Positions 27,001 through 30,000 of a stretch of 64,000 nt of DNA are shown in pieces; the first letter of the stretch is position 1; every line of letters starts with the position of its first letter. This DNA comes from an uncultured Alphaproteobacteria bacterium (lineage in GTDB: Bacteria > Pseudomonadota > Alphaproteobacteria > CAAHEQ01 > UBA3637). Position numbers: made by a program. Location: positions 6,525-70,524 of the forward strand of contig CALXVS010000002.1 of NCBI GenBank assembly GCA_944392145.1, written 5' to 3'.

Positions 27001-30000
27001 AGTTTTAATATTCTGCAAAATTTCGGACCGAAATGGGCTGTTTTTGCGCGTGCCAATGGAGCATCGCGTTCGCCCGAATCGGTAAAACAGTCGTATATGC
27101 TGGGGGTGGTATGCAATAATCCGTTTAATCGTAACGCCTTGGATCAATTCGGGTTTGCCGGAGCGGTCAATAAATTGAATAAATCTGTTAATGGTGCGGG
27201 AACACGGTCAGTTGAAAATGTTTTAGAAGCGTATTATGCCTTTGGTGTTTCCAATTATTTAACCATTACACCCGATATTCAATTTTATATCAATCCCGGA
27301 GCCAATCCGGATAATCACACGGCAACGGTTGCCTCTTTAAGAGCGACGGTGATGTTTTGATGTTTGATAAAATCATGCAATTTGTCGGGCTGTTTTTTTT
27401 CGGCTTTGCCGTTTGGCTTATTGCCAAAGATGTTGAAGCCATCGGTCCGCATCGGTTGATTGATTTGGTTTTACAAACACCAATATGGGTAATCGCTATC
27501 GCTTTATTTTTTACGGTGTGTGATTATGCGGCGTTGGCCGGATATGATTTTTTATCACTTAATTACATACGTAAAAAATTGCCGGTTCCATTGGTGCTGA
27601 AAGCTTCCGGTATCGGGTTTGCCATTAGTAATACGGCTGGTCATGCTTATGCGTCCGGTGGGGCGATTAGGTATTTATTTTATACGCCCGCCGGTGTAAG
27701 CAAAAGCGATATTTTAAAAATAATCGCGTTTCAATCCATTATGTTTTTTTTGGGTATGGGATTTGCTTATGCTGCAGCAACGGGAATTATGCTGATGACA
27801 CCGGTATTAAAGCAAAATCAATATGCGCACGTGTTATATTTTTCCGTTATTGTTTTACTGATTTTATTCTTTTTATATTATCGGTTTTTAGTTATTCCCG
27901 GTAAATCGTTTCATGTATCCGGGGTGGATATCAATGCCCCTACCAAACGACAAACATTTGGGCAGTTGATTATCGGATTATGTGACAATATTGCGGTTTC
28001 AATTGTGTTTTTCAGCATTTTCAGATTTCATCTGGATGCCGATTTTTTGACAGTGTTCAGTGTTTTTATTATTGCCCAAACAATTGGAATCGCTACACAG
28101 ATTCCCGGTGGAGTAGGGGTTTTTGAAGGGTTGTTTTTATATCTTTATCCCCATACAATTGCACAAAAACCGGGTATTTTGGCGGCTTTGGCCGTCTTTC
28201 GGATTTTGTATTTCTTTGTGCCTTTTTTTATTGCATCTCTTTATTTGGGATGGGATAAATTGACCCGAAAAAGACAAGTTGAAAAGATTAAAAATCCTTA
28301 AAAAAATTAAAGAAATGAGATTATTTTTATATGCCTAAAAAAAGGATCGTTAGAATGTAACGCTCTTTTGGGTTAAATTAACATACTTTGGAAAGTCTGT
28401 TAAGATAAAAGCAACACCCTGTAATTTAACAAGAAAACATATTTTTATCAGTTTTACTTTTTTATACGGGAAAATGTCTAAAAAAAACGATCGTTTATTT
28501 AAAGCAAATATAAAGGAGAGAAGAGGGAGAACCAATGAAAGAAGATTTTATGAATGAGACAGCCATTAGCACGCAAGCAGGGCGCAGTATGGTAGAGATG
28601 TTGGGTGTATTGGCGATAATAGGTGTTTTATCTGTAAGTGGGATAGCCGGGTATCGGTATGGGATAGAAAAATATCAAGCGAACGAAATAATAGATGAGG
28701 TTTCAAAGAGAGCGATTATAGCGGCGACACAAATGATACAGCAGGGGGAATTGGGTTCTGATGGATTTTTGAAGAGTGTTAACGGGATAACATATGCAAC
28801 CGGATTGGCGAGCGCGGAGGATGATGCGTCCTTTTTTATAGATGTAACCGGACTAAAGGAATCGGTTTGTCGGCTTGTATTAAAGAATTTACCGGCGTAA
28901 GCGTCGGAAGTGATTGTGAATGGGACGGGGATGACACCTGCAACGGCATTTGATTGGACAGGGGATTGCAGCGTTCTTTCAATAGGGTTTTATGAGGATT
29001 TAGAGGCAGATAATGTGAAGGTAAATTCTCCTGTAACAAAAGACGAAGATACATTTGACCGTGTTGGAATATGTGAAGGAATAGGGATGTGGGATGACGG
29101 AAAATATTGTTCCTATAATCCGACAAACGAGAGCTTAGATTGGTGTTTGAATTTTAATACAGTTTATCAAAATGAAAAATGTGTCTGTGCGGACGGATGG
29201 TATGGCAATTATTGCCATTTGAATCCGGATATATCAAAAATGCTTTGTCATAATCATGGAAGTGCCCAATCATGTGGTGGCAGTATGTTTTGTGATTGTG
29301 ACAGCGGATGGATTGGTACGGATTGTTCTATTGCAAAAGACAACACATGTTCCGGACATGGCACTTTAATTTCTTCAAAATGTCAATGTGATACGGGATA
29401 TATTGGTTTAAATTGTGAGGTTAAAACAAACGAAGCTGATGAAAAGTTATGTTCTGGACGTGGGATTTGGATTCAAACTCTTCATAATGGATATTGTTCA
29501 TGCCAAAGCGGCTTTGGTGGATCGGATTGTTCCAAAGAGGCGCGTGTAGCATGTGATGATATTGGGATATGGGTTAATGACGGATGTCAATGTGATAATG
29601 GCAGTTCGGGGTATATTGGATGTTGGAATTCGGATTGTAATGGACATGGAACACTTAATAGTGGAGGATGGGATTGCACTTGTGATGCCGGTTGGTTAGG
29701 GGTGTATTGCCAGATAAGAAAAGAAAATGAAGAATCCACAGATGTTATGGAAGAAACAACAACAGTCTGGTAATTCAATTATGAAAAAAACGCCCGATTT
29801 TTATACCGGGCGTTTTTTGTATAAAAAGTTATATTTAATCGTCGTAAACGACAACATCTTCAACCACATAGGCATTTGTGTTCGGATCGGTTGTATAGGT
29901 GACTTCAATCCAATCATCCTCTTCCATCATCGGCATGTAATAGGCAGATCCTTTTTGATATGTTTTACCATGTTTCTTTTTGTTTTTCTTCATCATTTTC

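Follow-up and report, generated by a model that had tools for sequence, protein, structure and literature searches.

A modular pilin-EGF gene of an uncultured alphaproteobacterium, very probably a nonsense-inactivated pseudogene

We analysed a stretch of 64,000 nucleotides of an uncultured Alphaproteobacteria bacterium (contig CALXVS010000002.1, positions 6,525 to 70,524; in the following called the window) and focussed on two adjacent open reading frames (ORFs) at window positions 28535-29773: the first encodes a prepilin-like protein, the second a series of epidermal growth factor (EGF)-like repeats. The data make it highly probable that the two ORFs are the remains of a single ancestral modular pilin-EGF gene that has become a pseudogene by a nonsense mutation. 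The ancestral protein would have consisted of a class III-like signal and a type IVb-like pilin module (residues 1-159), a disordered linker and six EGF repeats of the teneurin type, and a C-to-T transition would have changed its codon 122 from CAA (Gln) to TAA. This stop would remove three beta-strands and the partner of a conserved cysteine from the pilin module and would uncouple the EGF cassette from the only export signal; the EGF part would therefore no longer be made in a useful form and would drift neutrally. In comparison with intact homologues the premature stop is positioned inside a conserved domain, and the sequence downstream of it has both relaxed constraint and secondary lesions.

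One reading frame with a single stop codon

ORF 28535-28900 (121 amino acids) shares its frame with the open stretch 28901-29773, and nothing but the TAA at positions 28898-28900 lies between them, as stated in the original prediction and now confirmed by sequence and translation. The chance of finding an open frame of 290 codons straight after a stop codon in DNA with 42% GC is about 1e-8 (an estimate, based on ~6% stops per codon). All parts of the gene are on the forward strand. A Shine-Dalgarno-like sequence (GGGAG, 28525-28529) is present 5 nucleotides upstream of the ATG at 28535, and a second one (AAGGAG) at 28513-28518. The frame downstream of the TAA was predicted to have neither a signal peptide nor a plausible ribosome-binding site of its own, and indeed it has no hydrophobic N-terminus and merely a weak Shine-Dalgarno-like sequence in front of the two potential start codons, GTG 28910 and ATG 28931.

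The conceptual fusion protein can be divided into several parts. Residues 1-16 (28535-28582) are a class III-like signal leader that ends with an invariant glycine, Gly16, at a putative prepilin-peptidase site (G/RSMVE). The N-terminal two-thirds of the pilin module (residues 17-121, 28583-28897) contain the invariant Cys112 (28868-28870) and are followed by the premature stop at codon 122 (28898-28900), derived from CAA by a C-to-T transition at position 28898. The C-terminal third of the pilin module (residues 123-159, 28901-29011), which is now untranslated, contains the invariant Cys145 (28967-28969). An acidic, disordered linker (residues 160-179, 29012-29071; predicted local distance difference test score (pLDDT) below 50 at residues 162-178) is the start of a variable cassette and is followed by a Cys-rich region with 27 cysteines and six teneurin-type EGF repeats (residues 180-392, 29072-29710), recognised by Pfam, sequence and Foldseek matches. 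The gene ends with an acidic, Thr-rich tail that includes the original stop codon, TAA, at 29771-29773 (tail and stop: 29711-29773).

Directly downstream, a hairpin (AAAAAAACGCCCG-loop-CGGGCGTTTTTT; 29783-29819) adjoins the convergent gene at 29835-30185 (reverse strand). From its sequence and position, it is probably a bidirectional terminator common to the pilin-EGF gene and this convergent gene. The hairpin was not picked up by a simple terminator scan, probably because of its 10-nucleotide loop, and has only weak leader- or small RNA-like matches in Rfam. The same scan detected no internal terminator of note within the pilin-EGF locus.

An intact allele from the same species and intact relatives

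Including the window, 23 copies of the locus were available for comparison: 22 are on contigs from different samples and assemblers in ENA and Logan, and the 23 copies represent 14 distinct haplotypes. The TAA at 28898-28900 is present in all 23 copies of this allele class. The identical 121-amino acid product is encoded on 19 contigs, and its 90% cluster consists of 15 sequence variants.

Cluster look-up identified an intact pilin-EGF protein of 325 amino acids (P0143), encoded on the Logan contig L089. Nucleotides 2-612 of L089 are 98.4% identical to window positions 28402-29012, and nucleotides 1126-1276 are 99.3% identical to window positions 29785-29935 (blastn). L089 also carries five polymorphisms that segregate among the TAA copies and therefore belongs to the same species gene pool. 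At the position of the stop codon, L089 has CAA (Gln); as this codon is found within the same species, the TAA arose by a single C-to-T transition. The two matching regions of L089 flank a region (613-1125) that is unrelated to the corresponding part of the window (29013-29784) and encodes an EGF cassette that is shorter and differs from the one in the window (EGF_Teneurin, 60 bits). At 29012/29013, the 5' breakpoint coincides precisely with the last residues of the pilin module (after ...FYEDLEAD), and at 29784/29785 the 3' breakpoint is found at the terminator hairpin; on this single short contig, the positions of the breakpoints suggest that modules are exchanged by recombination. A homologue search with P0143 found no second copy of the L089 cassette; the nearest match was P0002, a protein of another species with 54% identity.

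Intact genes are also present in other species, namely in related uncultured Alphaproteobacteria of the gut. Among 5.8 billion proteins, a homologue search identified 3,912 relatives, the majority of which match only the N-terminal ~110-140 residues. Uninterrupted pilin-EGF relatives that cover 78-94% of the conceptual fusion protein are P0002-P0007, P0054, P0067, P0084 and P0120. P0002, of all intact homologues in other species the closest one, is 52% identical over the pilin module and reads through the region of the stop site (...KNLPVHVSEIIIDG...): it has ...CKIILKNLPVHVSEIIIDG... at the position where the window has ...CRLVLKNLPA, the stop codon and ASEVIVNG.... The gene of P0002 is at the end of a contig and not syntenic with the window, and its context does not show orthology.

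Two further intact genes are syntenic. The first one is on L045, a contig from a roe deer abomasum metagenome-assembled genome (MAG; JAFTEW010000058.1, positions 105-1472), encodes at least 455 amino acids and is upstream of orf116, PvlArgDC and a permease, as in the window; its product combines Cys-rich repeats of the Ephrin_rec_like type with a PT-HINT (pretoxin HINT) domain (31 bits, cut-off 27.7) that has no toxin domain after it. A PT-HINT domain without a toxin domain is an odd architecture for a pilin-like protein. The second one, on L032, is downstream of OprB and has yet another Cys-rich region. A contig scan with the single conceptual protein yielded no confirmed relative, and the species of the window was not recovered among the GTDB representatives; the alignment-based contig scan returned, among the matches listed, only paralogues and orthologues with at most 67% identity.

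A search for an intact orthologue in related genomes had been proposed along with the original prediction; intact genes are present on L089, L045 and L032, and P0002 is intact, too. The CAA allele, these intact relatives, the predicted fold and a pair of cysteines that straddles the stop (see below) support the idea of one ancestral pilin-EGF fusion. One of the arguments that had been put forward for it was dropped. The residues downstream of the stop had been suggested to be homologous to the Cys-rich tails of two paralogues at 11812-12963, but the match of the tail segment is not significant (E 0.53), and the alignments to the paralogue at 11812-12444 by BLASTP and hhalign do not go beyond the N-terminal ~45 residues (E 2e-9; 98% probability). 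Since only the N-terminal helix aligns, the tails provide no argument; the conclusion that there was one gene stands nonetheless.

The stop is within a conserved pilin-like module

The upstream product starts with MKEDFMNETAISTQAG, followed, after the putative cleavage site, by RSMVEMLGVLAIIGVLSVSGIAGY: a hydrophilic leader that ends in glycine, a glutamate five residues further on and a hydrophobic helix. The class III (prepilin) signal that had been noted in this ORF is therefore present, with Gly16 at position -1 and Glu21 at position +5 (QAG/RSMVEMLGVLAIIGVLSVSGIAGY). Both residues are invariant in an alignment of 120 homologues, as are R17, S18, M19, L23, G24, C112 and C145. Cleavage after the glycine of the invariant G-R-S-M-V-E-M-L motif (28580-28603) would leave a mature protein that starts with arginine. 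The two invariant cysteines, C112 and C145, flank the stop on opposite sides: they are the conserved Cys pair of the pilin module, and this pair is split at the window locus.

AlphaFold2 models of the fusion protein and of residues 1-160 predict a helix of 54 residues (17-70), two strands (85-91 and 100-105) and a second helix (109-117) upstream of the stop position, and three more strands (125-128, 131-133 and 147-152) downstream of it. The pLDDT is ~90 over residues 30-155 and 87-96 across the stop. The predicted structure is a pilin fold, with a long N-terminal alpha-helix packed on an antiparallel beta-sheet, and according to these models the stop cuts inside the pilin domain and not at a domain boundary.

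The downstream part encodes EGF repeats of the teneurin type

The original prediction had listed six repeats of the type C-x-C-x2-G-[WYF]-x-G-x2-C, each preceded by C..GHG. Five of these are strict matches, at residues 216, 253, 283, 321 and 381; the sixth, at residue 351, is degenerate (CQCDNGSSGYIGC). All of them are preceded by C-x2-[HRI]-G, but the literal GHG or NHG is found at only three. The proposed test of the region with hidden Markov models (HMMs) gave a clear result: on the conceptual fusion, EGF_TEN (73 bits, cut-off 65), EGF_Teneurin (58.6 bits, cut-off 24.3) and EGF_2 (46.6 bits, cut-off 22.1) all exceed their Pfam cut-offs. Among solved structures, teneurin-3 and teneurin-2 match the sequence best (E 3e-16 to 1e-13) and Notch comes next, in agreement with the tenascin/teneurin-type spacing that had been recognised from the sequence. 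AlphaFold2 models the repeats with a pLDDT of 78-90 (residues 230-350), and a Foldseek search with the EGF model returned the EGFs of Notch-1 (E 1e-6), integrin I-EGF and mouse teneurin-3, consistent with an EGF fold.

The GRSMVEML family: pilins or membrane anchors?

The protein belongs to a large family. At least 575 confirmed genes with the GRSMVEML motif are present in GTDB representative genomes, several of them in the same genome, and an exhaustive phmmer search of 1.84 billion representatives returned, at 50% identity, 4,867 clusters for a limit of E≤1e-3 and 1,003 for a limit of E≤1e-10. MAGs from gut samples of humans, rabbits and ruminants account for 79 of the best 80 loci and carry the label Alphaproteobacteria. 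The remaining one, L046 (JAZLLX010000012.1), is on a 3.3-kb contig that was binned as Acidaminococcaceae, which is probably a binning error. EGF_TEN/EGF_Teneurin domains are found in 15 of the 120 closest relatives; others have laminin-EGF, EB, DUF5885 or Mucin2_WxxW domains, and most have Cys-rich regions that are not seen by Pfam. Teneurin-type EGF, ephrin-receptor-like repeats, HINT and mucin WxxW are among the modules observed on GRSMVEML proteins. The window itself has two short paralogues in tandem on the reverse strand, one at 11812-12444 (210 amino acids, GRSMLEML) and one at 12475-12963 (162 amino acids, GRSLIEML), with a nucleotidyl-transferase gene on one side and an RNase D-like gene on the other; the Pfam models PilS and Bundlin (type IVb pilin) match the paralogue at 11812-12444 at about threshold.

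By analogy to known type IV pilins and to the modular pilins of PMC8179133, we infer that the intact relatives are assembled into pili and act in adhesion. The N-terminal helix would insert them into the inner membrane, a prepilin peptidase would cut them behind Gly16, and they would then join a type 4 filament, probably at its tip, where the EGF repeats could be presented as an adhesin; the C-terminal cassettes would be exchanged by recombination.

At the level of the family, several findings weigh against this mechanism. Both prepilin signatures remain below threshold (Pfam PF07963 N_methyl: 11.5 bits, cut-off 21.2; NCBIfam TIGR02532: 12.0, cut-off 16.3), none of the 120 homologues has a precomputed PF07963 match, and for the N-terminal module phmmer detected no more than a marginal match to a pilin among the PDB sequences (MVEML on LIELM of the type IV fimbrial protein 8tob, E 0.08). 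Arginine at position +1 is unusual for type IV pilins. The 64-kb window encodes no peptidase A24, no GspE/PilB-type ATPase and no secretin, and scans for the Walker A motif GPTGSGK[ST], peptidase A24 and secretin motifs were also negative in the window and 104 loci (940 kb with ~95 family genes).

Because the signature HMMs fail, the +1 position is arginine and no linked machinery is found, we give weight to an alternative: the GRSMVEML module, although derived from a pilin, may have no part in a pilus and may serve only as membrane anchor or secretion tag, by which Cys-rich modules are retained in the periplasm or at the cell surface. The very high copy number per genome would also be in line with such a function. 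On the other side, the family has kept the full pilin fold, with globular head and conserved Cys pair, and not the helix alone; Gly at -1 and Glu at +5 are invariant; and genes for type 4 filament machinery are often unlinked to pilin genes. We regard a mere anchor function as possible but rather improbable.

Tentatively, and with a probability clearly below one half, the family can be seen in a wider context. The GRSMVEML proteins could be an undescribed, greatly expanded repertoire of modular pilins, in which a constant type IVb-like scaffold displays eukaryote-like modules and recombination behind the pilin domain swaps them. The locus in the window might then be a variable adhesin locus that exists, within one species, in two forms, a null allele (TAA) that is common and an intact one that is rare and has another EGF cassette, a situation that would point to host-driven selection for loss or switching.

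Decay of the gene downstream of the stop

Polymorphism across the 23 copies was used to compute the ratio of nonsynonymous to synonymous polymorphism (pN/pS). The post-stop frame (28901-29770) has 7 synonymous (S) and 24 nonsynonymous (N) polymorphisms, equivalent to a pN/pS of 0.85. The upstream ORF has a pN/pS of 0.20 (S 7, N 5), and the values of four flanking genes are 0.43 for OprB (S 4, N 6), 0.26 for LPG-synthase-TM (S 8, N 7), 0.13 for orf116 (S 2, N 1) and 0.05 for PvlArgDC (S 6, N 1). By Fisher's test, the post-stop frame is significantly different from the upstream ORF (p=0.035) as well as from the set of four flanking genes (p=0.006); the upstream ORF is not different from the flanking genes (p=1.0).

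We argue for decay because of nonsense mutations, frameshifts and the loss of cysteines, rather than because of the pN/pS value alone. At least one secondary disabling lesion is present in 11 of the 23 copies: TGG is changed to TAG at 28955-28957 in six copies, TCA is changed to TGA at 29375-29377, inside the EGF region, in three copies and a 5-bp deletion at 29716-29720 causes an early TGA in four copies. A 3-bp indel at 28946-28948 segregates as well (10/23 copies), and the EGF region has two Cys-to-Tyr changes and a D-to-V change in the core EGF motif. The part downstream of the stop drifts neutrally, and its changes are of the kind expected for an untranslated remnant and not for a readthrough extension. 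The stop itself is ordinary gene decay and there is no need for any special mechanism.

Some of the data weigh against this explanation. The intact allele is known from one Logan contig of 1276 nucleotides and from one sample only, and a high pN/pS, taken alone, could also mean diversifying selection on an adhesin. The 121-codon remnant does not look neutral, as its pN/pS of 0.20 is like that of the flanking genes: this may mean that it is still made and under constraint, or that recombination has given it polymorphisms in common with intact alleles. A stronger constraint on the remnant, seen initially in 8 sequences (pN/pS 0.06), was withdrawn with the extension to 23 sequences, which have five amino-acid variants.

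The locus could accordingly be split and partly functional, with a dead EGF part and a 121-amino acid remnant that is expressed and under selection, for example as a short pilin-like protein anchored in the membrane or as a subunit that interferes. The lower pN/pS upstream than downstream of the stop would be explained in this way, and Shine-Dalgarno sequence and start codon are both intact. However, the remnant lacks three beta-strands of the domain and the invariant Cys145. Counted from Gly16, the truncated product has 106 amino acids, and none of the complete family members in 80 related loci is as short as this (minimum 123, median 383). Moreover, 7 of the 23 copies (L093-L099) have an M22R change (ATG to AGG, window 28598-28600) in the nearly invariant hydrophobic motif, four of these seven together with the TAG at 28955-28957, and S98P is present in other copies. 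The counts are small and the low pN/pS could be explained by variants in common with the intact allele. We consider a selected remnant unlikely: the 121-amino acid remnant is probably non-functional too, albeit this is less certain than the loss of the EGF part.

It is very unlikely that a functional EGF protein is still produced, be it by programmed or leaky readthrough of the TAA or by reinitiation at GTG 28910 or ATG 28931. The frames upstream and downstream of the stop are identical, and the downstream frame is still open in 12 of the 23 copies and still scores as EGF. Against this, the population has additional stops, a frameshift and Cys-to-Tyr changes as segregating variants and the downstream pN/pS is 0.85, with no sign of the purifying selection expected for a translated extension. 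Neither a recoding structure nor a repeat tract was found around the stop: the local RNA fold (111 nucleotides) is no better than that of shuffled sequences (z 0.32), and an Rfam search detected no recoding element at the locus. The codon is TAA and not the TGA or TAG of selenocysteine or pyrrolysine, and in E. coli a TAA with a following G is an efficient stop signal. TAA is also the main genuine stop codon of the organism, as it is the commonest one in the window (23 of 42 long ORFs); the genetic code is therefore standard. An alternative genetic code was considered and rejected: TAA, TGA and TAG each terminate long ORFs of the window. Reinitiation, finally, would result in a product with no signal peptide and leave 28 cysteines in the cytoplasm.

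A sequencing or assembly artefact, for which nothing speaks beyond the prior possibility, can be dismissed because the same TAA is found in the window and in all 22 further contigs from different samples and assemblers. Of the three explanations that the original prediction had offered for the stop, sequencing error is thus excluded and a readthrough or phase switch is contradicted by the neutral evolution and the secondary nonsense and frameshift lesions downstream; the pseudogenising mutation is the only one that survives.

Neighbouring genes in the window

The gene at 29835-30185 (reverse strand), convergent with the pilin-EGF gene, encodes a small, conserved, Lys-rich protein with a signal peptide (116 amino acids as called) that has no Pfam match; it is kept beside PvlArgDC in other species (L015 and L045). 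PvlArgDC (pyruvoyl-dependent arginine decarboxylase, 30358-30948) adjoins an amino-acid permease (31041-32501), and a separate Orn/Lys/Arg decarboxylase is encoded at 61120-63447 (reverse strand). From their sequences, these decarboxylase genes look like amino-acid-decarboxylase acid-resistance modules, which would fit a life in the gut. The window further contains a GT10 fucosyltransferase-like gene, PMT_2 and GT2 glycosyltransferases and a STELLO-like glycosyltransferase, at 55509-56582 (reverse strand), 41344-44592 and 49217-50299 (reverse strand); this set of predicted glycosyltransferases points to an elaborate synthesis of surface glycans.

Comparison with known systems

Modular type IV pilins are a described class of proteins that consist of a pilin module, a linker and a module that is not pilus-specific, comprising over 1,200 proteins and 264 architectures (PMC8179133). 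Examples are PilB and PilC of Streptococcus sanguinis, which carry a vWA and a lectin module, respectively (Raynaud et al. 2021, PMC8179133). The conceptual protein of the window has the same layout, with an N-terminal pilin module, a linker and a non-pilus module, and is likewise predicted to be a filament-presented adhesin; P0143, P0002-P0007, P0054, P0067 and P0120 have this layout as well, while the window copy itself is interrupted. It differs from the modular pilins of PMC8179133 in that the graft is a run of teneurin-type EGF repeats and that the window copy is a pseudogene. The original prediction knew of no described pilin with EGF repeats. This agrees with our literature search, which found no description of such a pilin, and with the available parts of PMC8179133 and its supplements, in which no EGF module was found among the modular pilins; pilins with grafted modules as such, though, are an established class. 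The family described here fails the IPR012902/PF07963 signature on which the survey of PMC8179133 was based and would therefore have been missed by it.

With the EGF domains of animal teneurins and tenascins (PF25024 EGF_TEN, PF23106 EGF_Teneurin), the bacterial repeats share the Cys spacing and the C-x-C-x2-G-[WYF]-x-G-x2-C signature. In animal teneurins, the EGF repeats are part of a type II transmembrane protein with a YD-repeat shell, whereas here they are bacterial and carried by a pilin module.

Type IVb pilins and large minor pilins, such as CofA/CofB of enterotoxigenic Escherichia coli, TcpA/TcpB of Vibrio cholerae and PilS of Salmonella, have an identity of only 9-17%. Type IVb systems are encoded in a pilus operon and their C-terminal domains are of the beta-repeat or beta-sandwich type; in contrast, the genes of the GRSMVEML family are scattered among housekeeping genes, the residue at +1 is arginine and the C-terminal modules are Cys-rich and eukaryote-like. 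Many dispersed paralogues with a conserved prepilin-like N-terminus and a variable remainder, as observed here, are also typical for the prepilin-type proteins of Elusimicrobium and the DUF1559 proteins of Planctomycetes; the family of this study differs from these by its occurrence in gut Alphaproteobacteria, by another N-terminal motif and by its Cys-rich, eukaryote-like modules.

What may be notable is a large family that is missed by the standard prepilin signature, for which our literature search found no description, and which has many members with adhesion modules of the animal type. Provided that they form filaments, these proteins would widen the concept of modular pilins to poorly known gut bacteria and would be candidates for host- or mucus-binding adhesins, and the replacement of a cassette between alleles hints at variation of such adhesins within a species.

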